Assembly: GCA_965655095.1 (NCBI GenBank)
Contig: OZ296652.1
Coordinates: forward strand, 63,240,001-63,304,000
Length of the DNA: 64,000 nt
From: Haplodiscus bocki
Lineage: Eukaryota
Direction of reading: 5' to 3'
Positions 5,223 through 53,565 of this stretch are shown one piece after another (the stretch's first letter is position 1; every line of letters begins with the position of its first letter). The notes under the pieces are model-generated. The model did not search any database. It saw nothing but the letters and a program-made list of their open reading frames with translations, and was not told where the DNA came from. Position numbers and translations under genes: made by a program.

Positions 5223-5422
5223 NNNNNNNNNNNNNNNNNNNNNNNNNNNNNNNNNNNNNNNNNNNNNNNNNNNNNNNNNNNNNNNNNNNNNNNNNNNNNN
5301 NNNNNNNNNNNNNNNNNNNNNNNNNNNNNNNNNNNNNNNNNNNNNNNNNNNNNNNNNNNNNNNNNNNNNNNNNNNNNNNNNNNNNNNNNNNNNNNNNNNN
5401 NNNNNNNNNNNNNNNNNNNNNN
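5223..5422. other. Assembly gap (200 N)
   Basis: Run of N; it hides the start of the element B 5' LTR. Confidence 1.
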
Positions 5423-6723
5423 AATTGACAATGTCAATAAGTCTGACTGTAATTATAGAAGTTGACTTTACAAGTGAAGATTTGTTCCGCACGCGTTCCG
5501 TCGCTAGCAACCTGGTGAAGTCATTAGACTTTAATGCAATGCGTTGTGCTACCATACTGTATCACTTTTGCCAATCATGGAACGGTTCCCTAGCCATCCA
5601 TTTCATTCTTAGCGGTCGCGTTGCAACGAGCAGCGCTACAGGAGTCTAGGTGGCTGTTCCGGAACGCTCTGGCCTAAATGAGGAGCCAGCTAGTAGCAAT
5701 ATGGAATGAACTAGGGGAACGCTCAGTTTTGCTCCCGAAAGCGTATGTTAACGATGCAATAATATTTCAGACATGTAGTCATGACTTCTCCTTTTTTTAT
5801 TCTCTTATAATTTTCTTTTTTTTTGTTTAACATTACGGACTTTCTTTGATCCATTAAATCCTTTGATACATTAAATATACTACTGATTTTTGTGTCGAGG
5901 CGGGAATATGCACTTTGATGTCCATTTTTGACGGATTAGGCCCGTACTGGTTCGTCAAAAGATCGAGAAGACGAAGCCTATCAAGAGAAAGATGAATGCA
6001 GAGTTGTTTACTTCCAGCCAGAGCCGGCGTTTTTTTTCACATATTATGATATTATGATTGAAGTACTTTTTCCTTTTTGTATCCTGACTTAGCGTGTAAA
6101 CAACTATGTTTCCCGCCAAAGAAAAGGTGTAAATAGAAGAAACGAAAACACTATTTTATAATTTTCTGTACTGCGGTAACAATCGATCGTCTTTCATATC
6201 TCATTTCCCTATGGTTAAAACATTTTTTTTCTTAAAAGACAGAAAAATTACATCCGGTGAAAAATTCATTTCTAAATAAAACTATGTCAGTCCGCACAAC
6301 AAATGAGCTGTTTTCTCTTCCAAAGTTATGGCGATGCTAAGGAACAAGCGAAAGTTAGCAGCCGTTTCAAAGGAAAAAGCGGAAAGTGCTAGGAACAGCC
6401 AGTTGCAGAAAACGTTAATTCCGGGAATGACTGAAGAATACATCGCCCATGTTTGAGAAGGAATGGAAGGCAGTGTCACCCAAAAACTGACCAAGGAAAA
6501 AAATCACGTATTTTGGCTGCTCTGTCCAAACTTAACGAATAACTTCTGAACCCGCGAGTACGGACATGCTCTGAGACTGTTCCGGGAACATCCTGGAACC
6601 ATGACTCCGAAAACGGGGAACTCACTGGGGATCGTTCCCAGATTGATCCCTACACCGAAATGGAAACCTCTACTCGTCGAACCTGCATCTCAGCTGACTC
6701 ATACCTGGAGGAGAGCTCGCACA
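5423..6723 (+). repeat. Element B 5' LTR (5' end lost in gap)
   Basis: Shares blocks with 15124-16766 and 52600-53565, e.g. GCGGGAATAnnCACTTTGATGTCCA at ~5899, ~15956 and ~53451. Ends ...GCACA before TGGTGA at 6724. Confidence 0.7.
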
Positions 6724-7495
6724 TGGTGATACGAACTCAAGAACAGATTATCTATCGCCTCCACATGGTGACAGGAGCTCAAGAAAAGATTCCTTTTTGG
6801 TCCTCAGGGACTTCTTCAGGAAAACAAAAGAAGGCGCGCGCCACAATTCAGCTATAGTTTCGCCATCAGAACACCCCTGCGTCAATTGAAGCAAACCAAA
6901 ATTTGTTGGCTCTTCAACAATTTGCGAGCAACAGTAACTCAGCCATATTCAATAGGAAAACTAAAGGAATCTCAAAACTGCCCGAATCCCTTACAAAAAA
7001 ATGCCCACCTTCGACCGGAAGTCAGAAAAAAATGAACTGTTTGAAAATCTCTTCGAACCAAATTTTGAAAATTGACAACCAACTCACGGAAGAAGACAAA
7101 TAAAACTGTTTCCACTCTCTAATGCAGGGTGGTGCCTTGCAGGCGTTCCAAATTATCACCAGCCCAAGCAGAAATTTTGGCAGAAATTCTCACAGTGTTC
7201 CGTAGAAAACACGTAGAACCCCAGTCAATAGCTTCGGTGAAGTACAAATCTTAGCGTTTTGCTGTTTAATCTAGCGAACAAGAAGGTAACTGGTTAGTTG
7301 GTTGAAATACAGAAACTAGCAAAAGACGCATCCAGAATTGCGGCTCAGGCGACCATAAATTATTTCAGATATACCAAGATGCTTCCACAAGTGAAGAAAC
7401 CAATCAAGCAGTCTCTTTTGGAGAATGGCACATATGAACAGATTGTGTCGCATCCTGAACGTGATTTACAGTTGAAAAGTTTAAAGGATGACTGA
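6328..7495 (+). pseudogene. gag: Element B gag (decayed; starts inside the LTR)
   Basis: MAMLRNKRKLAAVSKE... through HMVIRTQEQ, HMVTGAQEK and ...ENGTYEQIVSHPERDLQL, with multiple stops and frameshifts. Homologous to element A Gag. Confidence 0.75.
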
Positions 7496-15194: not shown

Positions 15195-16766
15195 AACTGA
15201 AGCTTTCCGATTGCATTTTAAGTTGAACACCTTTTATCATTTGTATTCAAGTTGCCCGTAAATTGACCCGTTGTGTATACGGATAACTCGTATGAACTGA
15301 TCAAGACTGGGACGGAAACTTTACGGAACAAACAATTATCAACCTAGTAGCTCATTGTGATTTGAAGGTTTCACATTTGTATTTATTTAATCAACATAAA
15401 GGTACTTTTCAATTAGAACAAGAGCTAAGTGCAGCAGTTTAATTAATATGACGCTGTCAATGATAAGTATTCACAGCAACTGTAGAAAAGCAAAAATGAC
15501 TCTAGGAGTGAAAAAGTGTTCCGTACGTGTTCCATCGCTATTAATCTGGTGAGGTCACAACAATGTTCACTCTAATTACCGTGCTACTATGCTTTCTTTT
15601 AAGGAATAATTTTGGAGTGGCTCCGTATCCATTCATTTTCACTTTCATAGGAGCACTGCTACTACCGGCGCTACAAGTGAACACAAAACAGTTTCAGAAA
15701 GGACTAGATGAAACAAGGAACGAACTGGTAGAAAGGAGGAGCAGACTAGGAACGTTTTTAGTTGCTGCCTAGTTCTACCTCAAATTTGCGCAGTAAGGTA
15801 ATATATATTCTCACCGTATGGGAACATGTAGAACTCAACTATTTTTTGTATTTTTTTTATTTTCACTGTAACATTTACCAGATGAAATATTTCAGTATTT
15901 TCCCATTATGGAGATCCACTGAATTTTTGTCTTTTACAAAATCTATTGTGATGGCGCGGGAATAAGCACTTTGATGTCCACCTCAGACAAATGAGGCCCG
16001 TACATTTTCTATCGAAATTTGGATAAGGTGCAGTGCAGCCTATGAGGGAAGAAATGGATGGAAAGTTGTTTATTCCCCGCCAGAGTCGGCCTTTTTCCTT
16101 CGTAAAAAGTATGGTTAAAGTACTTTTTCCTATTTTGTACCTTCAATTGGCGTGTGAACAATTATTTTTACCGCCAAGTGAAGGGTGTAAGGAGGAAAAA
16201 TGAAAGTAATAATGTTTAATATACATCTAACTGTACCGTTTGTGACTAGTCATACTTTGTGTTTATCATTAGGCTCGCCTCGTTTCTATTCGTGAAATTT
16301 TTGTGAAATCTCTCAAATTATTCAGCTTTCAATCGTATTCCACAAAATTTCCTTGAGAAATAGAAACCCTGAAAGACAAGAGAAAGTTGGCAGCAATTGC
16401 CAGAGATTGTTAGGAAGGACCTCTAGAAACAGTCACTCGCCGAACTCAGCCGTTTCCATAGTAAATGAGGAGTATATTACTCAAGTGTCGGAGGAAATAG
16501 AGCTTAGGTGACAAAGATTTTATCTCAGGAATTCAATAGAACTGAGAGCAGGTTTCTTGGTGCTCTGTCTAAACTTGACGAATTTCTTCCGAATCCACAA
16601 GTCCGGGTACAAACCGGAACCCGTCTAGTAACGTCCCGGAACATGAACGCAGGAAACCGGGAAAAAACTGGGGATTGTTCCCAGAACGATCCTCGTCCTG
16701 ATGTAGATGTCTCCGTTTGCCAGACCGCTTAACCCATGGACTTAGACCCAGACGAGACATACTAAA
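15124..16766 (+). repeat. Element B 3' LTR (~1.64 kb) containing a gag N-terminus copy
   Basis: Starts TGTCGC, like the element A LTRs and the 52600 copy. Contains KDKRKLAA...EEYITQVSEEIE...LGALSKLDEFL (~16370-16732), matching gag at 6328-6720. Homology stops where the first PBS-like site would follow. Confidence 0.75.
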
Positions 16767-33500: not shown

Positions 33501-33659
33501 CCAGTATCTTACAAAAACAAAAGCGGACTTCGAACCGCCACTGTCTTAGCAGAATTTCGCCGATAAATTTTTCGCCGTTGTCCTTCAACATTAACAGCGA
33601 AAGTCTACAATTTTGGACCTCCTCAACTGGCTGGTCGAATGGATAAAAAGCGTAAATCA

Positions 33660-34570
33660 AGTTGTCGGACAATATTGCCTTCCACAAGCAATGTTTGCAG
33701 ATGATGGAAACAGGAGTCCTTATGTTTAAAATCGGAGGCTTTCAGTTCGTGGGCGCACTGTAGCCCATTTGACATGATTAACGACAAAAAAATGACCTCC
33801 GTATCACCCTAAAAGCGGCTAAACAGAACTGAAATATATGAGAAATGACATAAATTTGAAATTCGAACAGAACAATTTCGCTAAAGCACAATATAGAAAA
33901 AAGCTCAAGACATCTAGGGAGACAAAACGTGCTTGTCAAAAAGAAATATAAAGTTAACTAAAATTGTCGGACAATGTGTTCTTCCGCAGACAAAGTTTGC
34001 AGGTGATGGAAACAGGAGTCCTTGTGTATCAAATTGGAAGCTCTCAGCTCAAAGGCTCCAAATAGCCCTATTGACAGGATCCACGACAAGAACGCTTCCT
34101 CCATAGGTCCCCAAGTCTGCGGAAACAAAACGACATGCGCAATGTCGCAAGGTAGAAAAACTAAAAAACTCAATTGACAAAAAGCTGGTCCTCGAAACGA
34201 TACATTTTAAAATTAAAGTTATCGCACATTGTTTTTATCTACTAACAAAGTTTGCAGATGGTGGAAACTAGAAACGTTATGCATCAAGCTGGAGGCTTTC
34301 AACTTGTGGTTGCAAAGTCCAATCTGACACGATTCATGACAACAAAATGCCATCTACAGAAGCCTAAACCTGTTTCAAAACATAAAGATATCGAAAAATC
34401 GATATTGAAAGGTATTTGAAACAGACCTCATTTTCCAATCAGACAGCATAGAAAAAGCTCATTGAATGTAAAAAGACAAAATTGGCTTGTCAAAAGGAGA
34501 AAGCAGAAATGAAGTTGTCGAACAATTGTGATTTTCAAAAATACATTTGGAGATAATGGAACGGAGAGTC
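33660..34570. repeat. Degenerate tandem repeat, ~250-300-bp unit, ~3.3 copies
   Basis: GTTTGCAGnTGnTGGAAAC...GGAnGCTnTCA...TGACAnGAT recurs at ~33693, ~33995 and ~34250, with a partial copy at ~34545. Confidence 0.7.
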
Positions 34571-37111
34571 TGCTTGCTTTGTATCGAACTTGATTTTGTC
34601 ACTCGTTTCAGTGATTTTTGTGAAGCAAAGATTTTGGTATACGATAGCTTGCGTTTTTGAACCAAAAACACTCCCACGTCTTTTGCTTTTTTTTGTTGCG
34701 GAAATCAGGTTTCTCGATTGGGTTAGCCCTTTTCTGCGTCAGTATTAAAATATACCGGCGTTTTTTTTCAGAGGAGATCGGCGTTAACCTTCAGTGAAAA
34801 ACCTTCAAAAAAAATTTATAAGTGCCATCAGCAAAATGGCAAATGACTAAAAGACCATTGTGCATATACATGAGCTAATAAACACAACACCAAGTAGATG
34901 TTTTCAAGAAAACTGACCATTCCTAACTAACATTCACTTAAATGACAGACAACAAAGGAAAAGTTACGTTCGAAATAAAGGGAACTCAATATGAACAGAC
35001 ATCAATTTTCATGCCAAAGAGATGCAAGACGATAAGACGATAAGACGATGTTACAGATATCGAATATCATCCTTCCAAATTAAAAGCGAGGAGGCCAAAA
35101 AACTGGTGTTGCCTCAATTTCATAAACATCCATTTTCGTTATTTTCTTAAAAATTGGAGAATTAATTGGAGAGCCAAATCAACAAACTTCTATTTTCATC
35201 CAATCTAGGATTAATACGTAGAATATTTCATTGGTTGAAAAGCAACTACTTTCAATACCCATGATACACATTGAGAATGCAATAGAGAACTAAATACTCA
35301 GAAAACGGAATTCATCACTGCGAGGCGAACTTAGAACCGACTAGCTCAGACAAATAGCAACACAGAATCAGAAAAGGGGTTAATTCCGATGCCCGAAAAG
35401 TTTCGCGAACTGGCAAATGTATTAAGGATGGGTTCATTATTAAAAGTGAAATTCATTCAAGAAATCCTTTCCTTATTGTAGAAAGCTTTTTAATTGTCGA
35501 TTAGCATGAAATTCCGAAAATTCAGAAAGCAGACATACTTTTACCCCAATTCAAATTTTAGCAGCGAATTTTGCGGTAAATTTTGTTGGAACTCATGTCA
35601 GCATGATGATTTTAACCTCCAGAGGCTGACTTCCCATAAATATCAACGATTAAAAAAAACTCTTGCATCTTATCTCACCACCTGTCAGGTGACCACGCAA
35701 ATCCGCGAACAGAAAATAAACTTGACGAAAGCAGAAAGCAAATCTTAACTCACAACTTGCGCACGCACAGTGTTGCAACTCTAGGTTGAATTTTTGAACT
35801 TTGTAAACTTTTAGACAATTAGAAGGTGCAAAATCATTATGTTCAATTAAACAACTTTTCATCACTTTGTATAAGTTTTTTCTAATACGTTACACTGAGA
35901 TGAACTGTGACGTACCTTAGCAGAAAATTTAGTGATTGGACCGATATTCGAGAATACCCTAATGAAATGGTGGAGAACCTAATCGACTAGACAGAACAGA
36001 ACAAAGAGTTTGCTCCTCTAACACAAAAACATGCTGCATGCCGATTTCCAGATAATGGCACACTTAGCCTGTACCAATCAACAATCAGCAGAAACGAGGA
36101 CGTTCTTGCAGGCGTTCGCATCTAGAGTGGCAAAACAAAGTTGTTCAACACCTTTTTCTTGCGGTTCTACATCGATGACGGGAACTCCGTAAAACAGTAA
36201 ATTAGTTTGACTAAAGTGAATCTTTGTATGGTAATGATATTTGAACGATACATCTGATTGCGTGTCGCAGGCTGCCGCCTGTGACGGCATGATCTACTCC
36301 GTTAATTACAACGGGCAGAACTCAGTCATACAGGGCTACGCTCTGCCCTTAATTGAAGACTAATATAATAGAACTATCCTTTAATAAACCATTGGATAAA
36401 AACCCCCACCATTTTGAAGTTATATTCTTATACATACTTATATACTAATATATAAATATATATAAAATCTTACAAATATTTATGTACTTATGCGCAAAAT
36501 CCATACAAATATCGAAGAAGCTTGTATCATGAAGGAAAGGTCATAGACAAATGTTTACAATGCGCAACTTATCTGCAGTCTTATACTCAAATTTGATTGG
36601 TCAAAGGCAAGTAATCGTATCAACTGCTGACCAACCAAAAGCGCTGCTAGAACCTGGTCAAAATTGGTCACTGGGACCTAATTTTGACCATTTTGCTCAA
36701 AGCGAGTGGTCGTTTTCAAACAAAAGGCGAAATACGGCCAAATGAAATCAGAAAGCCAATGTATGAACAGACATAATTAAAAAATATTGCTATATACTTA
36801 TATAAACATATAATTATGTGATTATGTGATATAAAATCATTTAGTGCTAATAATTATTAAATCCTGAGTGAGAAATATCATCTGGTCAAAAGACGGTCAT
36901 AGTGCCCACTTTTGACCACTACATATTAACCTACAGTTAAAACCTGTGCAAGAAGCTTAATACCAATATTCTTGCCATATTTAGCATATTATAACTATAT
37001 TTAACCATCCATTATATGAAGCATGCATGTAAACATGATTTTAATATCCCTGAACATTTATCCAGTTTCCATGACCATATTTTTGGTGGTCATGGTTTTG
37101 CGGCATATATT

Positions 37112-37270
37112 CTTTGATGTTGTTTATATTACTATTTTTAAAACTGACGTCATGATGATGAAATATATATTCCGGGCTAAACCTCTTTAATGTTGTTTAT
37201 ATTACTATTTTTAAAACTGATGTCATGATGATGAAATACATAGTTCGGGTTGAACCCCCTTTGATGTTTA
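37112..37270. repeat. ~73-bp tandem duplication inside the LTR (also present in the 3' LTR)
   Basis: CTTTrATGTTGTTTATATTACTATTTTTAAAACTGAyGTCATGATGATGAAATA... starts at 37112 and 37185, with a partial third start at 37259. Confidence 0.9.
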
Positions 37271-37322
37271 ATATACATAGAACCCGAGGACATGACGTCA
37301 AAGAAGTGGTCCTCCCAATTGG
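37145..37322 (+). promoter_or_regulatory. Candidate LTR promoter: CRE-like TGACGTCA sites and a palindromic CCAAT box
   Basis: TGACGTCA at 37145-37152 and 37293-37300; CCAATTGG at 37315-37322, ~260 bp upstream of the gag ATG. Function is inferred. Confidence 0.45.
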
Positions 37323-38249
37323 CTGGCGAAGATGAAGGAAAAGAGACGAATCTGAAGGAGAAATCATCAGAGGAGGATATTCGATCCTGAAAAACAGTTC
37401 ACTATTGAGGAGAAGAAAAACTGCCCTCCTAAAAAACAGTCGATTAGAATACTCTTTGAAACTGACATTATTCTTTGTCCCTGTTAAAATCCTTTACAAA
37501 TTTTTAATTTGAAGTATTATTTCACTTTTGTGTCACTATTAATTTTCGCTGCTATTACAATTCAGTTATTAAAACAAACATGGTTTCTACTCGTAAGAAA
37601 AGACAGTCAAACAAAAGACTCCTCAACCAATTAGATGACTTCGATCAGGATGTGATAATTGGCAACACTGCAAGCGAGAGACAAGAAAACGTTGTGGTCA
37701 ATGAGGGTAATAATGACCAGGATTTTACCGTTGGTACTTCTAATGTTAGTTCGATTATCAATGAAAATGTGTTGAATGTGAAAACTTTAGAAAGGTGTTT
37801 TAATGAAAGAATTGATAGGGAAATGGAAAATATTGTTGAAACAGTTGAAGATAGGATACAGAGTGCAATTTTGACCGCCATCGATAACATTGTTGGTCCT
37901 AAAATTGACTTAGCGATCAGGTCAATAAATGCATCCTCTGGACGGGATGTGGCTAGTATGTCTGCAAACTCAGAACGTAGGGAGCATACGGGAATCAATG
38001 CCTCTTTTGAAAACGCATCTGAAAACAACAACACATTAGGTGTAACAAATATAAATGATGAGGCTCGACGCAACTCCCAAGACGCGGTAAGTGAATTGTC
38101 GGTCCCGGGAACACAATTTGACCGACAATCACACATTCATCACGTGGTGACAGGAGTTGAAGAACGCCACACCATGCTGGCAGGAGGTTCAGAACAGATT
38201 TATAACCCTCATCACATGATGACAAAACCTAGTAACGAGACTCATCACA

Positions 38250-38260
38250 TGGTGACAGGA
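38250..38260 (+). promoter_or_regulatory. Primer-binding site TGGTGACAGGA
   Basis: Immediately follows the 5' LTR terminal CA and is complementary to a tRNA ending ...UCCUGUCACCA. Leu-like by my recollection of acceptor stems; identity not verified. Confidence 0.85.
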
Positions 38261-39385
38261 CAAAAAGCCCAAACAAGTCAATTCCCCGAGTTTCTTACTG
38301 GGCGCATTAAAACACCACGCAACCCATCATTTCATCAATACCAGAACCTGTCAACACAAGTATCACAAGACAACAATTTACCAGTGGTCGAACAAACACC
38401 AACAAATCAAAACTTAGAAGCAAACAACTCCATTAACCGTCTAGCTGACGCAATCGCTGGAATTACCACCCAACAACGACAACAAGCAGCCACAATGCTC
38501 AAACCAGCATCCACCAATACATTAATCTTCGATGGCAAAAATGAGAAATTCGAACTCTTTGAAGACCTATTTCACACAATGCTCAAGATGCAACCAGAGA
38601 TGACAGAAGCCATGAAAATTAACCATTTTCACGCTGATTTACGCAAAGAAGCACTTCAAACATTCAGAAATATCAGTGCAGTAAACAGGAAAACTCTCGA
38701 TGACGTGCTAATTGTGTTCAGATGCAAATATGTCAAACCCGAATCAGAAGCTACAGCTAAACACAAATGGCACAAGCTCACATTCGATCTCAATACAAAA
38801 TCACTTCCTGACTTCATAGAAGAGCTCAATGAATGTGCCGAAAGAGCGTTCGGTGACAACGCCCAACACATGATTGACAGCTTACTATACGCAAAACTAC
38901 CACCCCATTCAAAACGATCACTCAACGTAGCCTATTTGGAGAATGGCACGTACGACCAAATAGTTGCACACCTTGAAAGAGAATTATAACTCAGTGGCTT
39001 AGAAAACGATGGGGAGCTGACAATACCTACAATGACAGCCGTTCCCCCAAATGATAATCAACAAAACAACGAACAAACAAAAGTGGTATGCCACTATTGT
39101 AAAAAGCCAAGCCACGTAATCCGAGAGTGCCGCAAAAGGATGAGAAAAGAACAGGAGCAAAGAAATGATCCCTCAACCCACAAGATGAAACCTTCAACAT
39201 CTAAATCATACGCACCATGTCCTCATTGTCAAAGAATAAATCAACCTAGAACAGTGTTGGAGTGGTCCCAATGCCGCTAAAAGACCCAAACGGTTCAAAC
39301 AGACATATCCAGAAGACAACCGAAATGATGGGCAAGACCAAGGAACTTTGACCCAATCAGGACCTTCATCAATCCTTAAAAACTC

Positions 39386-39392
39386 TTTAAAC
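39386..39392 (+). promoter_or_regulatory. -1 ribosomal frameshift slippery site T TTA AAC
   Basis: X XXY YYZ heptamer in the gag frame directly before the gag stop. The -1 frame is open from 39386 into the pol ORF (39527 minus 39386 is 141 nt). Confidence 0.85.
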
Positions 39393-42300
39393 TAAAAAAG
39401 CCACGACTCCAATGGGCAGATTACACATCAGTCGGACAAAATGTCATATCTGACCCACCTCCAATAGTATTTCACTCTCATCAAACACTAAACACAGGAA
39501 TTCCATCAGTTGTCTGGCAGCAACAAATGGAAAAAGCCTACATTCGAAGATATAATAACATGCATATCATTCATAAAACACTTCCAACATATGAATTTGA
39601 CTACACAGACAACTTCGACACTCACTTCAGACCCCTTCCAGAAGTCTTTGCATACGACCCATACTTCGTTGACCCTCAATATGGATTTGACCCCTCTTGG
39701 GCTGAAGAAATATATGATCAAGACAAATTGGAGTACAAAGATACTTACAATAAACCTAATGATCAGATCGAATCTGATGATTTGATTACGGATGCACATG
39801 TATCAGACGCACTACGATACGCAGTGATAGATTTATGGACAGTCAATCCACAGTTACCTGATACATCACCCTTACCAAACTTTCGACCGAGACCACAGAA
39901 CCAACAAAGGCAAATAGCAGTCATCGACGACCAAATTTTAACACAGCTCCAGGTAAAGCCAGACGGACTCACAAGGTTTCTCCTGCTCTCAACAAATTCG
40001 CCACTGAAAAATAAGCGAAAAATGCTTTACTTTCCAATGGATTTCGGGGAGTTAAAAATTGATGGCCCCATAGATACGGGTGCTTTGTCAAACGCCATTT
40101 CGGAAGCCGACTTACGCAAAATTCGATTACTGGCTCCACATACGATATTAAATGAGGGCCCACCACCTGAGTTCCAAATTATGGTTGCCAATGGACAGTT
40201 AGAAGCACCTATTGCAACAGTAGAATTGCAATTCGAAGTCGGTGACATTACGTTCAGAGAAAAGTTCATAGTTATGACAAATCTTACAAGCTCTTTGATC
40301 GGTGTCTTATTCCTACAACGCAACAGTACCATACTCGAGATGCGTCAAGGATTTCTGAACTTTCCTTTCTTTTCAATGCAATTGAAAAATGAAGACCGGA
40401 CATACCCAAATGTCATTGAACCCATAATAAACCCAGTAGACACCATTCTACAACCGAGAAAACGAACCACAATTTGGGTAAAATCACAGATTTACACAGA
40501 AAACGAAGCGACAGGAATAATTTAACCTTCGCCACTTTTGGAGACCGATGAAGATCTCCTTATTTGTCCGGCAATTTCGTCAACCCAAAATAATAAACAT
40601 ATTGTCCAAATTAGCAATTTTCTAGACCATCCTTACACTCTCATGAAAGAAACACATATGGCAAATTTCTCCACTTTGACTCCTCAACAAACAAAGCACA
40701 TTCGACCAGTCAATCCTACCTCAGTGAGACACCTCCTGAATAACAATCACGATGATGCCATCCATTACATAAATAGCCTTCTGAAAACATCGAAACCTGA
40801 CGAAGTCAATAAGACCTACTGGTTTCCAACGCCGCAAAATCCGGGCAATGAAAAGGAACATACGCCCATTCAGACACGCATTCTCAATGAATTACGAGAA
40901 CTAGAACAATTAGAAAAATTAAACCCACTGGAAAATATCGACTCCCGAAACCAATTCCTATCCAATTTCGATTGGACAGACTCTACTTTACAATCGGATG
41001 CGAAACAAGCAGTTGAAAATCTGCTCGTGGAACTTCATGACATCTTTGCACGACACCGTTTTGACATCGGAATCAATACAGAGTTCAAAGTACAACTCAC
41101 ACCATTAGACAATAGGCCTGCTTATAGCCGGAGCCTTCCAGCGCCGATAAATCTCAAAGATGATATCCTTGTGGAACTAGCTCTATTACACAAGTATGGT
41201 ATCATCACAACACTACCCTTTAGCAAATACGCTAGTCCAATATTTGCACAGAGGAAACCAGATGGGAAACTACGCCTATTAGTTGACCTTCGGAAAATAA
41301 ACACACTAATAGCAGATGATTACATAAACAACAACCATCCAGTCAGTACATTAGCGGATGCAGCACAACATATGGCTGGAAAAAATCTGTTCTGCAAACT
41401 TGATTGTCCCCAATTATACCACTGCCTCCAAATGGCCGACCAACAATCAATTGAACTCCTTGCATTCAACTTTGCAAGTAAAACATTCGCGTACCGAAGA
41501 CTGGCACAAGGACTTAGCCGTTCCCTATCGGCATTTTCGAGCTTCATACGTAAATACCTCGACCCAGTCAGCAAAGCCGATCAGTGTGCACAATATGTTG
41601 ACGATATTGGCATAGCCGCCAATACACCTGACCAATTAATCAAAAAGCTCCAGTGCCTAAGGGAAGCTGGCCTCAAACTCAGCATGACCAAATGCCATTT
41701 CGGAGTACAAGAAGTAGATTTCCTTGGACGAACAATAACAACCAAAGGGGTTGCCCCTCAAAAACAAAAGATTGCTAAATTCCTTGAAAAAGTCAGATTT
41801 CCAAGGTCCAAAGAAGCACTTCAACGATACATTGGATTCCTGAACTATTACCGAAATTACATACCTAGATTAGCAGAAGGACTCACGCCGTTCTTCCAAC
41901 TACTCAAAACAACTGATGCCAAAACCAAAAATCAGATTACCCCTGACATCATGAAAGACTTCAGGGAAATAAACGAAGCTTTAGACCGATGCTGCCAGCT
42001 AGCATTACGTCAACCATTAACTGGTAAACAATTGGTACTAATGACTGACGCAAGCTTCCAAGCAGCTGGTTACGCAGTGTTAATAGAAGACGACCCAAAC
42101 CAAAAATACACTTCAACACGCAAAACTTATGCACCTATAGCTTACGGCTCAAAAACATATTGACCATCCCAAATCAAAATGTCCATCTACGCAAAAGAAT
42201 TTTTAGCCATTTATATGGCCTTCAAAGAATTTGGACATATATGTTGGGGTGCCACTAAACCAGTGATTATCATGACAGATAGCAAATCTGTCACCAGATT

Positions 42301-44560
42301 CTTTCAAACAAAAATGATCCCTCCACCGTTATGGAATGCCTGCGACTCCGTATTACAATTCAATTTCACTATCGCAGACATTCCAGGGAAAATGAACACC
42401 GCAGCAGATTTTTTATCTCTATTGGAAATGGATCCAAATGAAAAAGTCATTCTAAAAATCAGAGAAGACATTCCAACAAAACCAATTGAAGTAAACATCG
42501 AATCTACAGGCATTGCACAAGAAGAACCGGTCTTCTTTGATCCTACAGACCCACAAGAGACCACAGAAAAAGAACTTTGGAAACGTAAGGACGGGGTACG
42601 AAACGCCATGCCCAAGGAACCACCACTCATTACAGTGTCATGTTATTACGCAAATGACCTACACAAAGACACAACAATTGTGAATATAGCACATTTGACG
42701 AAACCATCACGTATACTTATCGAACAAGATTCAGACACAACACTACTTAATTTTAAACGCGAAATGTTGGGATTACCATTCGACGAACAAATTCTATTAA
42801 ACGATGCACGCTACATGCATTATTCCAGAAACAAAAAGCGTATTATCATCAAGGATGATATTCTCTACCGACAGTACTACAACGACATTGGTGAAGTCAG
42901 TCACTTACAGGTCCTTCTGCCCGGACAATTACTTAAAGTCTTATTACAATCATTACATGGAACAGCTGGCAAACACCCAAGAATTTCAAAAATGATGCAA
43001 GAAATCCGCCAAAAGTATTACTTCCCTTCAATTGCACCTTACGTCAAAAACTGGGTTCGTGACTGTGAAATATGCATCCACGATAAACGCATAAATAACA
43101 CACGAATTACTCCAGAATTAATCCACATCCAAGAATGGGATCTCGGACCGGAAGATCTTATGCAAATTGACTTATTGCCAGAATTACCGCCAAGTGGGGG
43201 TTACGAAAACATCATTACCGCAATAGATGTATTTTCAAGATACGCATTTGCCTATCCAGTATCTTAGCCCACGGCAGTAAACACAGCCAAAGTCATCATA
43301 GACATTATGAGAAGACATGCTTATCTACCCACCCTCATTATAACAGACAAAGGAAGCGCTTTCGTCTCCCAAGTTATACATGAGCTTGCTGAAATATTGG
43401 GCATCAATTTGAAACACGCCACAACGAAACATGCACAAACTATCGGAGTCCTAGAACGAGCCCATGCCACAATCAAGACCTCTTTGAAAATGGCATCAGG
43501 CGAATACAGGAAGCAATGGCACAAATATTTACCCATTGCAATCCTGAATTACAACACGACATACCATTCCAGTATCGATTGTGAACCAAGCCGAGTATTC
43601 CACGGCAGAGTTCCACACAACATTTTAGATCACAAACTTGGATTACGATTTAATCCCAATATTGCACCCACTACAGATTTTGCGGAAGAATTACTGCGAA
43701 GAACCAAGATCCTATATGACAGAACCAAGAAAAATGTCATGCAGTCATATATCAAATACAAAAGATATTATGACAAAAAAGCAAAAGCCTCACCTTTAAA
43801 AGAAAAAGATTATTGTTTTATACTTCAGCCGAAAGCGGACCACCAAGGGTCAAAAATACCGTTCCGTGACTTCCGACGGATTGGTCCCTACATCGTAGAA
43901 AAAGAACTACCAAATAACAATTACATTGTGCGAAAACTTAACACAAACAAAACCCAAATTCTACACAGAATTCGTCTTCGAAAATACAACCCCGAAAAAC
44001 CTTCTGAAGATAATTATTCAGAAGCACAATGGCAAACCGACGACAATATTGTTGTCCCACAGGATGATTTATATACAATTGCATGGGAAGCGGAATTTGG
44101 CGGACACCTATTTGACATTCCTATCATATATACCGATCCCAACGCAATTGACTTCGATGACAGTCACACACAGGGACCTGATACAGTAATTGTCCCACGC
44201 TCCTATTATCAAGATTCAAGAGATGGTCAAAACAGGGAAACTTGCCCCATTTCTGACCCATCAGTACCGCGAACTTTAACACCTACATCGAATGGTCAAA
44301 ATCAGGACATTGAGACCAGTACTGACCTAACTCAAAATGATAACGCCAAATATGTATCTGAGTCAAGTACCGACGCTGAAATTACATGTAAACCTGTCAC
44401 ACAACCACCATCAATACAGAGTGACACTTTTCCAACACTTGACATCAACAATCCTACAGCTGAAAATACTCCCAAAAAGGAATCTAACTCTTCTAGAGGC
44501 GGGAAATACAATCTACGCCCCAATCTCAATCCTATTTACTCAGAGATATACAGATATTGA
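39386..44560 (+). pseudogene. pol: Element A pol: protease, RT, RNase H, integrase in one frame with three in-frame stops
   Basis: PR IDTGA; RT LRLLVDLR and QYVDD; RH MTDAS, AKEFLAI, MTDSK, AADFLS; IN H..GKH...CEIC, QIDL, ITDKG, VLERAH, GPY. ORF pieces 39527, 40538, 42179 and 43307 share one frame, separated by TAA 40523, TGA 42161 and TAG 43265. Confidence 0.95.
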
Positions 44561-44578: not shown

Positions 44579-46030
44579 CTAGCCCCTTTTTGTGTGTCAT
44601 TTTTGCTCTTCATTGTTATTTTCTGCACACACATCCTTTACTTCTTTTCTTTTTACCTTTTTGGGGCATATACAAAATTACCAAGAACGACAACAAAGCC
44701 AAATTCACTCAATAGAGAAACAACAAGAAACTAATCAACAACTACAACAGCTTTAAGTAAGAGACAAGACGACTCAGTATTCGAAGTTTTGCGTTTGATC
44801 GCAACTTCCCAGCCAGCAAATCAGCCACTCCACGATGATGAGTTTTACTGATATCAAAACGTGGACGCTGTGCAGGACGACGACGTTGTTCTGGTAGTCT
44901 CTCTGAGACAAACACTGGTTCACTCAAGGATGCAGAAGACTCTACATCACTAGCAATCCTCACTGCCTTGTACGATTTCTCCAACTCAGTTCGAATTTTC
45001 TCGTACCCATGACAATCGACAAATTCCCAAGGATTGTACCACACTGAAGCGCACTATCACCAAAAGTCTCGGGCAACTCCATACACGACGAAATGGACTC
45101 CGGATCAGTGAAATAGTTTCCCTCAGCATCACTGCTCAACAGATACCCCTGTAGCGGCTCTAAAATCGCAGACAGGTCAACACTGGTCACTCCAACTTTG
45201 CTCGAGCCAAGCGAAACATCAGGCAATTTCGGGGCAACATGACCCAAACAGAGACAACTCAATTTAAATACATCCCACGTATACCCTCCACGTGACAATT
45301 CGGGGCACGATGACAGGAAAGAGACCATGTCCTCAACACATGGCCCAACACCCAACTCGTCTAGATAGACATGCCTCACATCGTCTACAAACTCTATGTA
45401 ACCGTCAATGTGCACGTTCCGCAACTCCCGTGCAACCCAACCCCGGGAACTAAAGCTCTGAAACAAGTGCTGGTAACAGTCAACAGCAACAGTCTTCGGC
45501 AATTTGAATAAGACTCCATAGTCGAAGCAAGCCAAGCCAATCACCAGGTCTGACTTGAATGTGGGGTGTTTCACTAACTCCTTAGCCACATATTTAATGT
45601 ATTGTCTGCCCTGGTCAATGAAGGGATTGAATGACTCCCCCATCACCGTCTTCGCCACAGTATCAGACCTTGCCTTCTTCCCACGCTCACGCTCCACATC
45701 GTATTTCGACTTGGCGACCTTCAACACTTTGGACCGAAGTTATGTTTTCTGCATAAATTCAGGGATGCCCACTAGCTCGCTTACAGCAAAGTCGAAAGAT
45801 CGCAACGCATCCCAATCCCATTCAGATGGCAGACAACTCCGAGACACGATTCTTCGTAGCAGACGATGCAAGAAATCGCACATTTGGCTGCACAAGAAAA
45901 ACCCTTGGTCACGACTGGGCACAAGTGACCGCTTGAAGGCCTCCCTATACTCTTGAACAATGAGTTTGAACAACTCCAGACGAGCTTCAAAATAGGGATC
46001 TCCAGTGACATGACTATCAAACGCTTGGCC

Positions 46031-46092
46031 CTACAACACAAACCAATTAAAACTTTATTACTTACATGCAATTACACGCAAACTATACCCAC
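46031..46092 (-). other. Intron 3 of antisense gene (62 nt, phase 0)
   Basis: AGG|GTGGGT...TGTGTTGTAG|GGC joins ...HVEGR to GQAFDSHVTGDPYFEARLELFKLIV, in frame with ORF 45740-45973. Confidence 0.7.
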
Positions 46093-46227
46093 CCTTCCCT
46101 CCACATGCTGAAACTCTTGACGCTGACTGGTGCTGCTGATGTACGTCACAATTTGAGGCCAATGAGCAATCATTTCCTGCACCACAAGAAACGCAGTAGA
46201 CAACTCTGATTTCCCATCTTCCAGGGC

Positions 46228-46299
46228 CTGCAAACGAACAATTATCACTCAACAAACATACTACTCAGACAATTACGGGGCACCACTACCAATACGTAC
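46228..46299 (-). other. Intron 2 of antisense gene (72 nt, phase 0)
   Basis: ATG|GTACGT...TCGTTTGCAG|GCC joins ...YFRM to ALEDGKSEL... and removes a stop. Confidence 0.75.
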
Positions 46300-46785
46300 C
46301 ATCCTGAAGTACTGTGTTGACTGCACCCAGCGTTCATCCAGAAGTCCATTCAAACGCAACAGGAGAGAACGCAGCATCGAACACATGTCAATCCTCCCCA
46401 TCACACTGAAGCTGGGTTTGTGCAACAAACGTTCAAATTGCACAGGTGTCAACGAAAATGGGTACTGAACACCCGCCTTCCGACCAGGTCTTTCATCGAG
46501 AACTTTCACAAAGTCGCCACTTGAACCGCCACAGCATATGATTGTTGCGTCACCCGAAATGGCACTCATTAATCGCGAAACAAGATCAATATAGCTTTTT
46601 GTGGGTGGAACATCTCTACCACAATGCAACATAGGCAGGCACAGGAAACGCTTGCCCTCCCAAAAACAAAGACTCAAAGTTCTGCGACGTGAATCCGCAA
46701 AAAATTCAATAGAATATGCCCCCTCACGAGCAATAACAGATGACACATGTTTCACCAGCTCCAGAAACAGATGATGCAGCAATCC

Positions 46786-46971
46786 CTGAAACATCACAAA
46801 TTACATGACACCCAACCATCAATTTCCACCCTACTCCCTCCTGTCAAATGCAAAGCTTCCCAACGACTTCTAACTCTACATGTAGTACACACCCGACAGA
46901 CTCTTGACCCATGGAAAACTACAGCACTATTACCCAGTTATAACCATAACAAAATCTGCTCAGATACGTAC
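46786..46971 (-). other. Intron 1 of antisense gene (186 nt, phase 0)
   Basis: TCT|GTACGT...TGTTTCAG|GGA joins ...SCIS to GLLHH... in frame and removes a stop. Confidence 0.8.
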
Positions 46972-49652
46972 AGAAATGCAGCTCAAACTCCAATTGAAGT
47001 CAGCGGTGCTCGCAGAATGACCCGTCAACACTCCCACCTGGGTCCAGTACTCCTCCAACGTCCACAATTGGCCTCCTCCTCGCAAAAAAATTAACAACAA
47101 CTCAATTTGAATCAGAGTCCGTGAACTTGCTGAGGTAAAAGTAAAGGGCTTCCCTTCAACAACATCATAATAAAACGGACGTTCGTGATCCAACTCAGGC
47201 ACATCCAGATGCATGAACAGCTCCTTCTCAGCTTCCAACTTGGACCCATACAGCGTACGCCCATCTGAACCACGCATCTTAGAAGGATGGTACCGGGCAC
47301 GAAATCTCTTATCTGCCGTCAAATGATGCTCCCGTTGGAAGTGGCGCTTCAGTTCATATAATCCCCGAGATCTCATGGACACGTTCCTCCTACAAAGCAT
47401 GCAGTAGAAGCAATGACGATTCTTCAACGGATTTTCTGGACCAGTAGCAAAAATTTTCGCAAACGGAGCGAGCTCCAGCATCTCCTCGGTGAAAACATAT
47501 CCACCACCATCCGACCCACTGGGTGAAATTGGGTTCGGCAGGCCTTTTCGTGACCACTTGTACAACTGACATTTTTCCCGAGCATCAGAACGAATCTGGC
47601 CAAGAGTTTTTAAGCTATCAGTATCATTAAACTCGTTCACTTCCGTTCGCAAGAAACCCAAGGCTGCATCTGCTTGTCGACTGGAACATGGTTGCTGTGA
47701 AAGATCACCCACCAAACGATCACTATCAAATGACTCCGTAATCGTTGGCAAAGAATAAAAAGATCGCGAAGCCACACTCTCCATGACAGTAGACCCTGAC
47801 CTACTGCGCGAAGCAGACTGCTCACTACCCTTCTCACCGACGTTTCTCCCAGTCTTTCCGCCAATCTTCAAAAGAACATCCTCCAACATCCCAAAAGTGG
47901 CCAAAGAAACTTCCAATCCGACGGCCTCAGCAAATTATATCATTTGATCCGAACTCATTCCGGTCACTTGCTGACGAGGATCCAATTGCACAGGAGGATT
48001 ATCAGCAAAACACTCTTTCAATAGGGTCCTTGCAGACTCACTTGGGTAATACTTCGAACGCCCAGCACCCAAACCCGGCTGCACTGTAGCTCCGGAAACA
48101 GCTGGAAGATCTGATTCTGCAACTTCAAAAACCCTCCCCCCACTCAAACTACCAACTCGTCTTCGTGCAATTGACTCCAACTCCGATGTACCATACTCCG
48201 TGTCATCCGGTCGGGAACTACTCGGGAACGACTGCCCAGCATCTGACACACCAACCATAGTATATCTATCACAAAATGATTTCCCACCCGAGTCATCAAC
48301 TTCAAATGCCACACTCTTTGAAGGCCGCTCATCTGCCACGCCAAACTCCACATCACACAATGACCGCTTGCTTCCAACACCAATCTTCTTTCCTCCCAAC
48401 TCTGCACGCAAAATCTCATCCACCTGACTCCTGGCAAAATTTGTTGTCAGCAGTTACCACACCACTCCCTGTATTAACGCGATCAACCAAATTTGAATCC
48501 AAGAATTCAAGCACTTCAGCAGGATCAACCTCCGCATTATTCTCTATTCCATCACCCCCGAGCGATTCAAGCTTATCTCGCAAAAACTTCTCCAGTCCTT
48601 CACTTCCTTCGTCACTACTCGACAATAGACACTCCTGACTGCCAGCAGCTAAACTCTCTTTATTCACATTCCCGCGTTCTTCACTTATGGTCTTTTCACC
48701 ACCTGTGACTTGCAACACTGCCAAATTTTTCGTTGGAGAAGTCTCTGTTTCCTCAATCACCACGATTTCTACTTCGCTTCTCTGGGGAAGGTCTGGGTAG
48801 TTCTCAGTTCCTTCGGTGTTGTGGTGTTTCGGCTCGTTGGATTCGTTCTCTAAACAATTGAAGCTGATAAATTTACGTGGCAACTCGCCAGCATATTCGC
48901 CCATTTCGAAACCGGATATCCGTAAAGAGGAAACACGTGTTCGTTCAAACTTAAATCTATCACGTGTTATCCTAGCAGTGAAGAGAGAAAAAGTGCTCTG
49001 GCCAAGCAATCAAATTGCCATCACTCATCAAGTAGTTCTTGATTCGACATATTCCAACATAACAAAAAGTATCAAAAAACCCAACACTCACCCATTTGTT
49101 AACAGCGACGAAACTTCTTGATTCTCTGTAGAAACCGGCTCCTCCTCCAATTGGCTCGAACACAAGTTGACAGAATTCCAAAACAAGTCCAAAACAAGCG
49201 GTACACAATCAATAAACAATTTAATCACAATTCGAAAACAAGATAATCAAATGCAATAACAATTCAAAATTAAACATTTTCAAAAGATGAGAGAGTCGTG
49301 GCTGTACAATATGGATTTTGCCACACTATGGTCATTATTGACACGATATTTACCTATCTAACATTATCTACATATTTACTATTTGGGTCAACTTCTGCCA
49401 GAGTTGCCCAACATTTGACCTTCGGAATTTCCATCTTTACATTTTCATCAAATCTTTATTCATTTTCTTTAATTCTCATTCACCCTATCACGCCTCACGC
49501 TCATTGGCTCTCACCATTACAAAAGGTGAGCTTACACTCATCAAAGTGAAGTGCCGCTTCAGCTTCACTAGCACGGTCACTTACGGTTATTGATGACCAC
49601 TTGAAATTCAAGAGTCAATACAACAATGAAATAAATCACTTAAAATCAAAAC

Positions 49653-50644
49653 ATGATTTCCTTTAACCTAACCGCATTAACCCAACCAACTCTCTCAATC
49701 CAACGAAAGTCAGAAACCCGCCATATTTTCCCCAGGAAAACCTTTCAGAATTTTACCCAACTTTCATTTACAGTTTCAATCTTCAACAAAAACAGTCGCT
49801 TCGCTTTAACACTTAGTTTCTTCAATCACGGCACTAAAGCATTTCAAGAAAAAGCCTTCGCAGATATGACCACCACATTCTGCATAGAAGAAGATGAAGA
49901 ACCCATGGCAACGGAGCCGATATACCTCTCGAGCGATGAGAGCGGATATTCAACACCCAATACAACTCCAGATCACCAGCTTGAATGCATTTATCCCGAT
50001 TCGATCACCCAGTTTATAGCCTCACAATTGGAACAACGGTCAAATATGGGCGCAGAGACCATCGTCTACCCACCAACACCAAACACGTCTACAATCTCTG
50101 ACGACGAAGACCCAATGAACCCCACTCCAATAATTGGAAACCCTGATCAATATACGCCTCAGATCCCACCCAGACGCCATCACCCAATACAACTTTGCCA
50201 ACAAGTGCAACCTATCCCAGACACGCCGCAATCTCCAACCCCGGAATATCTTGGGCAGTCAAACAATTTCTATCCCGACAATATCCCATTACACAACCCC
50301 CCAATATCGTAGCAGTAGCGGACGAATTGCGCAACCTAACATTACACCCTCATCCGCACCGTAACGGAACGGTTACAAGTTGTTTGGTATGTGGCAAATC
50401 GTACGACCAGGTGATCGAAGAGACTGTTGCCGACTACCTCGATCAGACATCACAACCGGGTGAGACAGTGCGGGAACGACAGATCAAGAGAAATGCATTC
50501 ATTGAAGGCGTTCAGAGCGGAGTCTTCATTTTATCCCCCCGGGAGTGTCGCAGGCTGCGGCCTGTGAAGGCATGATCCACTCCGTTAATTACAACGGGCA
50601 GAACTCAGTCACAGGGCTACGCTCTGCCCTTAATTGAAGACTAA
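49653..50644 (+). pseudogene. Element A ORF3: acidic/Pro-rich protein with HxH...CxxC; C-terminus encoded in the LTR
   Basis: ORFs 49653-50312 and 50195-50575 join by one extra C in a C-run at ~50300. A second 1-nt shift near 50530 leads into VSQAAACDGMIYSVNYNGQNSVIQGYALPLIED*, which is intact in the 5' LTR copy (36262-36363). Alternative start at ATG 49866. Confidence 0.65.
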
Positions 50645-52530
50645 TATAATAGAACTATCCTTTAATAAACCATTGGATAAAAACCCCCACCATTTTGAAG
50701 TTATATTCTTATACATACTTATATACTAATATATAAATATATATAAAATCTTACAAATATTTATGTACTTATGCGCAAAATCCATACAAATATCGAAGAA
50801 GCTTGTATCATGAAGGAAAGGTCATAGACAAATGTTTACAATGCGCAACTTATCTGCAGTCTTATACTCAAATTTGATTGGTCAAAGGCAAGTAATCGTA
50901 TCAACTGCTGACCAACCAAAAGCGCTGCTAGAACCTGGTCAAAATTGGTCACTGGGACCTAATTTTGACCATTTTGCTCAAAGCGAGTGGTCGTTTTCAA
51001 ACAAAAGGCGAAATACGGCCAAATGAAATCAGAAAGCCAATGTATGAACAGACATAATTAAAAAATATTGCTATATACTTATATAAACATATAATTATCT
51101 GAATATGTGATATAAAATCATTTAGTGCTAATAATTATTAAATCCTGAGTGAGAAATATCATCTGGTCAAAAGACGGTCATAGTGCCCTCTTTTGACCAC
51201 TACATATTAACCTACAGTTAAAACCTGTGCAAGAAACTTAATACCAATACTCTTGCCATATTTAGCATATTAAAACTATATTTAACCATCCATTATATGA
51301 AACACGCATGTAAACATGATTTTAATATCCCTGAACATTTATCCAGTTTCCATGACCATATTTTTGGTGGTCATGGTTTTGCGGCATATATTCTTTGATG
51401 TTGTTTATATTACTATTTTTAAAACTGACGTCATGATGATGAAATATATATTCCGGGCTAAACCTCTTTAATGTTGTTTATATTACTATTTTTAAAACTG
51501 ATGTCATGATGATGAAATACATAGTTCGGGTTGAACCCCCTTTGATGTTTAATATAAATAGAACCCGAGGACATGACGTCAAAGAAGTGGTCCTCCCAAT
51601 TGGCTGGCGAAGATGAAGGAAAAGAGACGAATCTGAAGGAGAAATCATCAGAGGAGGATATTCGATCCTGAAAAACAGTTCACTATTGAGGAGAAGAAAA
51701 ACTGCCCTCCTAAAAAACAGTCGATTATAATACTCTTTGAAACTGACATTATTCTTTGTCCCTGTTAAAATCCTTTACAAATTTTTAATTTGAAGTATTA
51801 TTTCACTTTTGTGTCACTATTAATTTTCGCTGCTATTACAATTCAGTTATTAAAACAAACATGGTTTCTACTCGTAAGAAAAGACAGTCAAACAAAAGAC
51901 TCCTCAACCAATTAGATGACTTCGATCAGGATGTGATAATTGGCAACACTGCAAGCGAGAGACAAGAAAACGTTGTGGTCAATGAGGGTAATAATGACCA
52001 GGATTTTACCGTTGGTACTTCTAATGTTAGTTCGATTATCAATGAAAATGTGTTGAATGTGAAAACTTTAGAAAGGTGTTTTAATGAAAGAATTGATAGG
52101 GAAATGGAAAATATTGTTGAAACAGTTGAAGATAGGATACAGAGTGCAATTTTGACCGCCATCGATAACATTGTTGGTCCTAAAATTGACTTAGCGATCA
52201 GGTCAATAAATGCATCCTCTGGACGGGATGTGGCTAGTATGTCTGCAAACTCAGAACGTAGGGAGCATACGGGAATCAATGCCTCTTTTGAAAACGCATC
52301 TGAAAACAACAACACATTAGGTGTAACAAATATAAATGATGAGGCTCGACGCAACTCCCAAGACGCGGTAAGTGAATTGTCGGTCCCGGGAACACAATTT
52401 GACCGACAATCACACATTCATCACGTGGTCACAGGAGTTAAAGAACGCCACACCATGCTGGCAGGAGGTTCAGAACAGATTTATAACCCTCATCACATGA
52501 TGACAAAACCTAGTAACGAGACCCATCACA
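50546..52530 (+). repeat. Element A 3' LTR (1,985 bp)
   Basis: Near-identical to 36263-38249; followed directly by the TSD TTGCG. Confidence 0.97.
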
Positions 52531-52538
52531 TTGCGTAA
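51861..52538 (+). CDS. LTR-encoded copy of the Gag N-terminus (225 aa), terminating in flanking DNA
   Basis: Identical to Gag residues 1-223 except E/K at one site; reads through the LTR end and TSD to a TAA at 52536-52538. Expression is unknown. Confidence 0.6.
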   Translation: MVSTRKKRQSNKRLLNQLDDFDQDVIIGNTASERQENVVVNEGNNDQDFTVGTSNVSSIINENVLNVKTLERCFNERIDREMENIVETVEDRIQSAILTAIDNIVGPKIDLAIRSINASSGRDVASMSANSERREHTGINASFENASENNNTLGVTNINDEARRNSQDAVSELSVPGTQFDRQSHIHHVVTGVKERHTMLAGGSEQIYNPHHMMTKPSNETHHIA

Positions 52539-52599: not shown

Positions 52600-53565
52600 T
52601 GTCGCGACACACTTGCGAAGCCTGCGGTGAACCCCTCCCTGAAGAAAAGACACCGTAAGACTCAGAATGAGACTGAAGTTTTCAAATTATTTTAAAAACA
52701 CTTATCTTAATTCGCGTTCAAATTACATGTAAATTGATCAGTATCATATAGGGATCACCGTAGTGAACTGATCCAGGCTGGGACGGAACCGTTACGGAAC
52801 AAACGGATATTCACATACCTTTCAAACATCTGCTGTTTTTATATATTTTTTCTTTAATACAAATCCACCTTCTAAGTTTAAATTGACTTGACTGGCTGTA
52901 GGAAGTGCTGAATTCCACTTTATGTACTTTATGTGCAGTTTATAAGACTAGAGCTAAATAACAGTTGTAGTTTAAACAGCTTGAAAGACTCTAGGATTGA
53001 AAATTTCTTCCGTACGTTATCCACCGTTACTAACCTGGTGATGCCACAATCATTCCGAGCACTAAGCTGTGCTGTAATGCTATACTAAAGACGGAATGAA
53101 TCGGCGTTTGCTCCTTCTTTACGCTCAGTTTGACTGACCTGACTGCCACTACTTACGAATGCGGAGATGATTCGGAGCACATTAGTTGCTACTCGCCTGA
53201 TTAAGGAGTAAACTAGTAGTGCTACTAGTTTCTCCTCATTTTTGAAGACAAATCATAATGAACTAAGTAATTTGAACGAATGTTGATTTGGACATGAAAT
53301 ACCATGGTTATTTTATTTAATTAGTATCATTTCTAATTTTCTCTAAATGTTGCCTGAATCTAGTTTAAAAATTCATTTCCCCACTTGGAGAATTATTCAA
53401 TTTTGTCCTCTAAGAATGGCCCAAAATTTTTTTGTGAATATTATGTCGGCGCGGGAATAAACACTTTGATGTCCATTTCCGACAGATTAAGTCCGTACGT
53501 TTTCTGTCATGAGATAGAGAAGACGCATCCCATGAGGGGAGAAATGGATGGAACGGTGTTTATTG
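52600..53565 (+). repeat. 3'-truncated LTR of the element B subfamily
   Basis: TGTCGCGACACACTTGCGAAGCCTGCGG... is collinear with 15124-16070 (shared GACTCAGAAT, GAACTGATC...CTGGGACGGAA, GACTCTAGGA, GCGCGGGAATAA.CACTTTGATGTCCA). Confidence 0.8.

Follow-up and report, generated by a model that had tools for sequence, protein, structure and literature searches.

Can a Gag protein be encoded across the end of an LTR, and what then fixes the position of that end? The question is raised by element A, an LTR retrotransposon in the window (the whole analysed stretch of 64,000 nucleotides), whose gag frame opens at an ATG at 37580, 670 bp inside the LTR, and, over its 469 codons, crosses the end of the LTR and the 11-nt PBS for tRNA-Leu(CAG); the same bases serve in integrase attachment, as tRNA primer site and as Gag codons.

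Structure and classification of element A

Element A measures 16,268 bp; its LTRs (36263-38249 and 50546-52530) are 99.1% identical to each other and the TSD TTGCG flanks the element on both sides (Table 1). Pfam matches along 39527-44560 follow the order PR-RT-RH-IN, with the RT and the integrase zinc finger above the curated cut-offs and the protease match just below its cut-off. The capsid domain matched PF03732 in the Atlas at 0.90 with low shared-feature counts, the Pfam match of Gag to DUF1759 was weak, and a CCHC motif lies at about 39090. Because the PR-RT-RH-IN order is combined with a Gag that resembles retrotransposon Gag clusters, element A is classified here, from these matches, as Ty3/Gypsy. 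An assignment to Ty1/copia was ruled out, the order PR-IN-RT being absent, and an env-bearing, errantivirus-like assignment was also rejected: the long frames after pol are antisense, and no env family was found among the five post-pol ORFs scanned. The purine run at the PPT position is short (GGGAG), yet it is conserved across copies.

The window copy is young but broken, with gag ending after codon 469 and pol fragmented, while gag of many other copies comprises 595-609 codons. At 39370-39400, the pol frame overlaps the gag end of these other copies at T TTA AAC, which we take from its motif class to be a candidate -1 frameshift site, and the protease is preceded by about 200 additional codons. 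The antisense region 44960-49009 is an integral accessory gene of the element family; the frame containing 46960-47934 has a weak zf-C2H2_12 match and 123 scored genome matches with 88-100% identity, and matches to the region often lie within frames of 660-712 codons. A proline-rich sense ORF of 219 codons (49653-50312, + strand), for which Pfam gave no match, stands immediately before the PPT. The LTRs contain a 73-bp tandem repeat (37111-37268 and 51392-51549) that is one unit short in at least 16 elements. At two loci, L016 and L113, a PPT to the left and a PBS with gag to the right of the same LTR mark tandem elements with one common LTR. Diverged local repeats were also seen outside the elements, at 33625-34593, 18377-19169 and 60479-61467.

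Table 1. Features of element A and of element B in the window
Feature	Position	Strand	Remarks
Element B, decayed relative	6328..6780	+	gag-N remnant; two units of the junction, HMVIR and HMVTG
Second B-like LTR	16366..16726	+	with gag-N remnant
Left TSD, TTGCG	36258..36262	+	same 5-mer at 52531-52535
5' LTR	36263..38249	+	1987 bp, TGT...ACA
TATA-like TATAAATAG, candidate promoter 1	37272..37280	+	shared by most copies and the 3' LTR, with a single mismatch in the 5' LTR of the window
TGACGTCA and CCAATTGG motifs	37293..37322	+	conserved in most copies; putative function
TCAGTT, candidate promoter 2	37562..37567	+	near-invariant in copies; ends 13 nt before the ATG
LTR-encoded gag codons (223)	37580..38248	+	basic N-terminus, predicted long helix (residues 56-119), disordered linker, junction units
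LTR-internal unit 1, ATG+565	38141..38157	+	13-nt tRNA-Leu match; preceded by CACG, not CACA
LTR-internal unit 2, degenerate, ATG+595	38171..38185	+	without TGG
LTR-internal unit 3, degenerate, ATG+637	38213..38227	+	without TGG
Junction codon 224, ATG	38249..38251	+	terminal A of the LTR and TG of the PBS (H-H-M-V-T-G)
Internal gag	38249..38989	+	linker, capsid-like helical domain
PBS TGGTGACAGGA	38250..38260	+	abuts the LTR end; tRNA-Leu(CAG), by tRNA pattern and tRNA calls
pol, PR-RT-RH-IN	39527..44560	+	several pieces in the window copy; Pfam
Antisense ORF pieces	44960..49009	-	between pol and 3' LTR; one with a weak zinc-finger match
CCCCCCGGGAG, PPT position	50535..50545	+	
3' LTR	50546..52530	+	same gag-N frame from 51861, 225 codons, reading into the flank
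Right TSD, TTGCG	52531..52535	+	

The gag frame inside the LTR

The distance from the ATG to the last base of the LTR (38249-37580+1 = 670) corresponds to 223 codons and one base. The first-pass annotation had proposed this start and these 223 codons, and the frame, the LTR ends and the TSD bear it out, as they do the in-frame ATG at codon 224. The LTR end itself was fixed independently. The 130 loci studied yielded 99 distinct LTR copies (50 5', 30 3', 13 solo, 2 tandem and 4 unclassified), and all 47 3', solo or unclassified copies contain the gag-N region and terminate in CATCAC(A/T) before unrelated flanking DNA; because of this common end, the LTR boundary can be regarded as real. About 3,900 first-look candidates for this LTR were counted in the 1.5-Gb genome.

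A stop-free frame of 223 codons arose in none of 20000 shuffles, the initial M and an open in-frame LTR part are retained in 75 of the 99 distinct copies, and the N-terminal MVSTRKKR was found in most of the 120 homologues listed. A 163-codon antisense ORF (37645-38136) was set aside: its third positions coincide with those of gag, of which it is a shadow. The AlphaFold model (mean pLDDT 40.9, most of residues 1-315 below 50) suggested, with low confidence, a long helix at residues 56-119, and an Atlas search with Gag residues 1-185 gave no match above 0.76. For the idea that the junction ATG is an ancestral or alternative start, no supporting evidence was found: since CA followed by TGG in the gag frame forces an ATG, its conservation is uninformative on start use.

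Selection on the LTR-encoded codons

Selection was assessed on codons 1-223 of the 99 LTR copies from 70 elements, with variants split by sharing. Variants common to many elements have passed through active lineages, as set out in the available part of Dazeniere et al. (10.1101/2021.09.06.459136). Variants present in at least 4 of the 70 elements comprised N113, S93 and 0 stops, giving an omega of 0.43, against 1.27 for private variants (N290 plus 14 stops, S84; Fisher p 6e-9) and 0.92 for LTR versus LTR within 29 elements (shared variants versus these, p 1e-4). Comparison of the window copy with 12 diverged copies gave an omega of 0.32-0.62. For all these values, copies were chosen by similarity, and 40 diverged loci were hand-chosen from the 150 listed by protein search, which may lower dN and favour open frames; the controls from private variants and LTR pairs are drawn from the same loci and do not fully remove this bias. 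The two other sense frames reached 1.81 and 1.37, and the LTR upstream of gag 0.83-1.01. The antisense frame with common third positions showed 0.50, which is what a shadow of gag would give; only the sense frame joins the capsid. Shared indels were in frame in 7 of 7 cases in the gag part versus 8 of 53 upstream (p 2e-5).

Constraint was strongest at residues 61-115, the region of the predicted long helix (omega 0.24), and weakest in the junction units (codons 186-223, omega 0.83), which are also the most length-variable part; the capsid gave 0.13. The dN/dS values and the conservation of the LTR-internal frame across copies both agree with what the first-pass annotation had supposed. Its proposal of a dual constraint on the att and PBS sites stands as far as these sites are protein-coding, while the constraint at the protein level is weak there. 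The pattern of variants indicates purifying selection on the LTR-encoded codons. Since the frame is conserved and selected, it would have been translated in active lineages, and this selection in turn argues for a transcript start upstream of 37580.

A junction array with a shifting LTR end

What the first-pass annotation had missed is that the att/PBS junction (xxMVTG in the protein) is repeated in tandem and in frame, with a copy number that varies, and that the end of the LTR shifts along this array. Three degenerate copies precede the true junction of element A, and the 120 listed homologues carry from 1 to about 6 units. Units differ in length (30, 33, 42 and 72 bp). A unit was called intact if both CA and TGG were kept, with at least 10/11 PBS matches, in the form CA followed by TGGTGACAGG. 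Depending on the subfamily, the LTR ends at ATG+565, +640, +670, +673 or +703, all 1 mod 3; the +670 and +640 ends were seen in 27 LTR pairs, whereas solo LTRs and 3' LTRs supplied the ends at +673 and +703.

The LTR-internal unit of element A at +565 has its counterpart in a sister subfamily (L104, L110 and L113-L117), where unit 1 is intact and the LTR really ends at this position. Fourteen of the 40 main matches stop there, an end that was confirmed in 13 of the 14 fetched ends, the 14th being unmatched by the pattern, and in all three checkable pairs of this subfamily the TSD agrees with that in the 5' flank of the partner. Intact units upstream of the LTR end are absent from all 27 LTR pairs, and two pairs have an intact spare unit downstream of it; in three the terminal unit itself is not intact, presumably owing to decay after insertion. 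Likewise, none of the 134 LTR-internal units in the 47 copies is intact, the terminal CA or the TGG being lost. The copies are related, and these unit counts are not independent events. As judged from these units, the LTR ends at the first intact one, so the end position varies by subfamily. Both LTRs of one element carry the identical set of units, and the change in units therefore took place before integration.

The PBS is complementary to CCA plus 8 nt of the tRNA end (11 nt). The primer tRNA was identified by a pattern search: the tRNA end matching the PBS occurs 818 times in the genome (control 0), and tRNA-Leu(CAG) was called in 2 of 4 scanned loci of this end. A first tRNA family search had returned calls for Arg, Lys and Thr and a single Leu(taa) only. 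The primer tRNA of the element is very abundant. Large tandem tRNA arrays were observed at G000:C1:161094516-161151119 and also on C4, C7 and C11; in these, the tRNA-Leu end repeats at a period of about 424 bp, and Arg and Lys arrays lie elsewhere.

Candidate transcript layout

Two candidate promoters lie between the 5' end of the LTR and the ATG. A start from the first would lie about 30 nt past the TATA-like site, which is also found upstream of gag in the sister family D. The TCAGTT at the second could be initiator-like (TCAKTY) or a 3' splice acceptor; TCAKTY is given as an initiator consensus in the accessible part of PMC3601003. The last upstream ATG, at 37332, opens 7 codons. Candidate poly(A) signals are ATTAAA at 37568 (82 of 99 copies) and AATAAA at 37924 (76 of 98 copies).

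Depending on the candidate start, full minus-strand strong-stop DNA would be about 690 or about 950 nt long. Use of the AATAAA at 37924 would leave a U5 of about 300 nt and permit an early jump; the first-pass claim that strong-stop DNA must exceed 670 nt is required only for a poly(A) site close to the ATG, and the coding region that the first-pass annotation had assigned to U5 may in part be R. Between two subfamily groups, fixed differences number 6 sites before 37243 and are dense after it, and variant linkage is lowest at about 37000-37450 and 38200-38550. These dips are weakly consistent with strand transfer upstream of the ATG and at the PBS, and are confounded by the tandem repeat. In the mosaic copies L098, L108, L110 and L130, LTR segments or internal gag derive from different subfamilies, with a switch near the PBS in L130; since mosaics occur along the whole element, mapping of R by recombination is suggestive only.

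Element B, family D and distant Gags

Two gag-N-like frames of a decayed relative, element B, were found in the window at 6328-6659 and 16366-16726. The first-pass annotation had attributed the same layout to this element; such frames are indeed present in both repeats, which, at about 60% identity and with no visible TSD, are at most a tentative LTR pair of one element. The left repeat begins in the N gap 5223-5422. A further LTR of the B/D type (52600-53564) starts about 70 bp past the right end of element A, which may have inserted beside or into this related element.

In family D, a sister family reached via element B, gag starts 403 bp inside a 1.5-kb LTR and each element carries 3-9 units at a spacing of mostly 42 bp. 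The span of the units is divisible by 3 in 26 of the 29 loci, two of which are duplicates. The 3' and solo LTRs end at the first unit (+403) in 19 of 20 cases. At L209, a solo LTR with the TSD GAATC whose first PBS carries a mismatch, the LTR ends 51 bp (one unit) later, at the second unit. The selection test gave an omega of 0.67 in family D on N20/S11, with 0.68 in a shifted frame. By BLASTP, no homology was detectable between the N-termini of families A and D outside the junction repeats. In pairs such as L201/L203, L204/L205 and L206/L207, the LTRs lie 6.4-7 kb apart versus about 14.3 kb in family A, and these closely spaced pairs are possibly gag-only non-autonomous elements.

On a wider scale, a genome-wide count gave 7686 sites for the junction 14-mer and 2 for the control; the first 100 sites listed include 34 gaps shorter than 150 bp, and 32 of these are multiples of 3. 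The motif M[VM]T[GAE] was present upstream of the capsid domain in 16 of 24 distant Gags, chosen from 150 for at least about 90 residues before the capsid match, which suggests, at the level of this protein motif, that the layout is clade-wide.

Discussion

We consider it likely that the RNA starts in the LTR upstream of 37580, that Gag is read through the att/PBS junction and that LTR ends shift by whole units. Genomic RNA would accordingly begin inside the LTR, and translation of Gag would start at an AUG in R/U5 and cross both the site of integrase attachment and the tRNA-Leu PBS. Reverse transcription from the tRNA primer lays down the right LTR end as its first base, and a terminal CA is needed by integrase. 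Mis-annealing at strand transfer, a putative slippage, would duplicate the att/PBS unit, and because the junction lies in coding sequence, only in-frame xxMVTG duplications would survive. Since the tRNA priming site sets the right LTR end, integrated copies would end at the first unit with a terminal CA and a PBS; once this unit had lost CA or TGG, the next would become the end and the LTR would absorb one more piece of gag. We infer this priming order and direction of change, and the dead units inside LTRs indicate growth, because tRNA-complementary sequence originates at the LTR edge. Unit 1 of element A matches the tRNA over 13 nt versus 11 nt for the PBS in use; given this better pairing, the rule of the first intact unit may reflect integrable products rather than the priming site, and priming at unit 1 may give products that are unable to integrate. 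Unit walking explains the last 105 bp of the 670 bp. The first 188 LTR codons are older, a trait of the whole clade that probably resulted from the same kind of event, a single jump of the PBS into gag.

Several other explanations were weighed against this walking of the LTR end through a translated gag. The LTR might hold the absorbed 5' part of gag as a passive relic, with Gag made from the junction or a later ATG, since the in-frame junction ATG leaves the capsid domain complete and constraint is weaker on the LTR part than on the capsid (omega 0.43 versus 0.13). We regard this as very improbable, given the 0 stops in 206 widely shared variants, the shared indels that are all in frame, an omega well under the neutral controls (0.24 at residues 61-115) and the retention of MVSTRKKR in most of the listed homologues. 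A possible but rather unlikely arrangement is that the coding part is mainly R, with polyadenylation inside or after gag-N, an early minus-strand jump and possibly a short strong-stop. The retention of AATAAA at 37924 in 76 of 98 copies speaks for it, as does Ty1, where gag starts near the R/U5 border. The same hexamer, however, is also coding (S-I-N) and is absent from the reference LTR of family D, no signal shifts along with an LTR end that moves by up to 140 bp, and the linkage minima, weak and confounded as they are, fit one strand transfer at the PBS and another before the ATG.

It could also be argued that xxMVTG is an ordinary linker repeat that grows by DNA slippage after insertion, the LTR ends being separate accidents; low-complexity Gag linkers often differ in length, and the unit lengths are unequal. 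This is improbable in our view, since each unit is centred on the tRNA-complementary junction and the LTR always ends at a unit, units within LTRs are consistently defective, unlike those downstream, which can be intact, and both LTRs carry the same units, placing the change before integration. An artefact of assembly or annotation, by which the LTR would include a duplicated internal piece, has a negligible probability: we found no point in its favour, and it is refuted by the 13 solo LTRs with matching 5-bp TSDs, which hold the whole gag-N frame with the same end on several chromosomes.

The broader reading, a clade-wide Gypsy layout that places a Gag domain of 130-230 codons, maintained by selection, in R/U5 and in which a self-duplicating, in-frame att/PBS array acts as a ratchet that moves the LTR boundary into gag, is plausible, and we advance it tentatively, as somewhat less than an even bet. 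If it is true, minus-strand strong-stop DNA would measure 0.7-0.95 kb, subfamilies would exchange Gag N-domains at the first strand transfer, and each solo or 3' LTR, of which there are thousands per genome, would represent a ready promoter, an AUG and a stop-free Gag-N module. Such modules could produce truncated Gag, with possible control of copy number, or fusions with flanking DNA. The layout of element A itself predicts unusually long strong-stop DNA and a Gag fragment encoded by solo LTRs. The natural copies show that the right LTR end tracks the primer site and not a fixed sequence, and they display, step by step, how coding sequence enters an LTR, making the origin of LTR length differences and of overlaps of the Ty1 type testable. 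Annotation pipelines that seek gag only between LTRs would shorten such proteins by a third and call the LTRs non-coding.

Among animal Ty3/Gypsy elements (Metaviridae), element A is ordinary in its PR-RT-RH-IN order, Gag fold, CCHC knuckles, 5-bp TSD, TG...CA ends and tRNA PBS, and differs in the gag start within the LTR, the coding and repeated PBS and the long antisense accessory region. A gag start downstream of the PBS is usual in Ty3/Gypsy, not defining. Some fish gypsy entries in Repbase are said to state a gag start in the LTR. Coding sequence also overlaps the U3 of the 3' LTR in HIV nef, MMTV sag and the CRM integrase tail; these overlaps do not cross the att/PBS, as gag of element A does. 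Within the open literature searched, we found neither a 100-200-codon LTR-encoded Gag in Ty3/Gypsy nor tandem att/PBS arrays with shifting LTR ends, and the accessible parts of PMC3601003, PMC2238898, PMC6238403 and PMC6451197 contain nothing on long LTR-encoded gag or PBS arrays. The plant Ty3/Gypsy elements Diaspora, Ogre and RIRE3 have LTRs of at least 2 kb and long inferred leaders, and gag of Diaspora starts 873 bp downstream of the PBS, the extra LTR length in plants not being gag, according to the available part of PMC1142308. A long LTR is common to these elements and element A, whose LTR contains gag.

The closest parallel is Ty1, in which gag begins in the 5' LTR (PMC3522557) and the PBS lies inside GAG (PMC4974528), as far as the accessible parts of these papers go. 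Element A is Ty1-like in both respects, while Ty1 belongs to another superfamily (Ty1/copia, Pseudoviridae) with the pol order PR-IN-RT. The overlap of gag and LTR in Ty1 amounts to about a dozen codons, compared with 134-234 in the families described here. The Ty1 PBS is multipartite for one initiator tRNA and, unlike that of these families, is not a tandem array of whole att/PBS junctions; we know of no subfamily-specific LTR ends in Ty1. A gag start in the LTR is known in principle from Ty1, of which element A represents an extreme form, and the most original part of the present observations is the walking LTR end.
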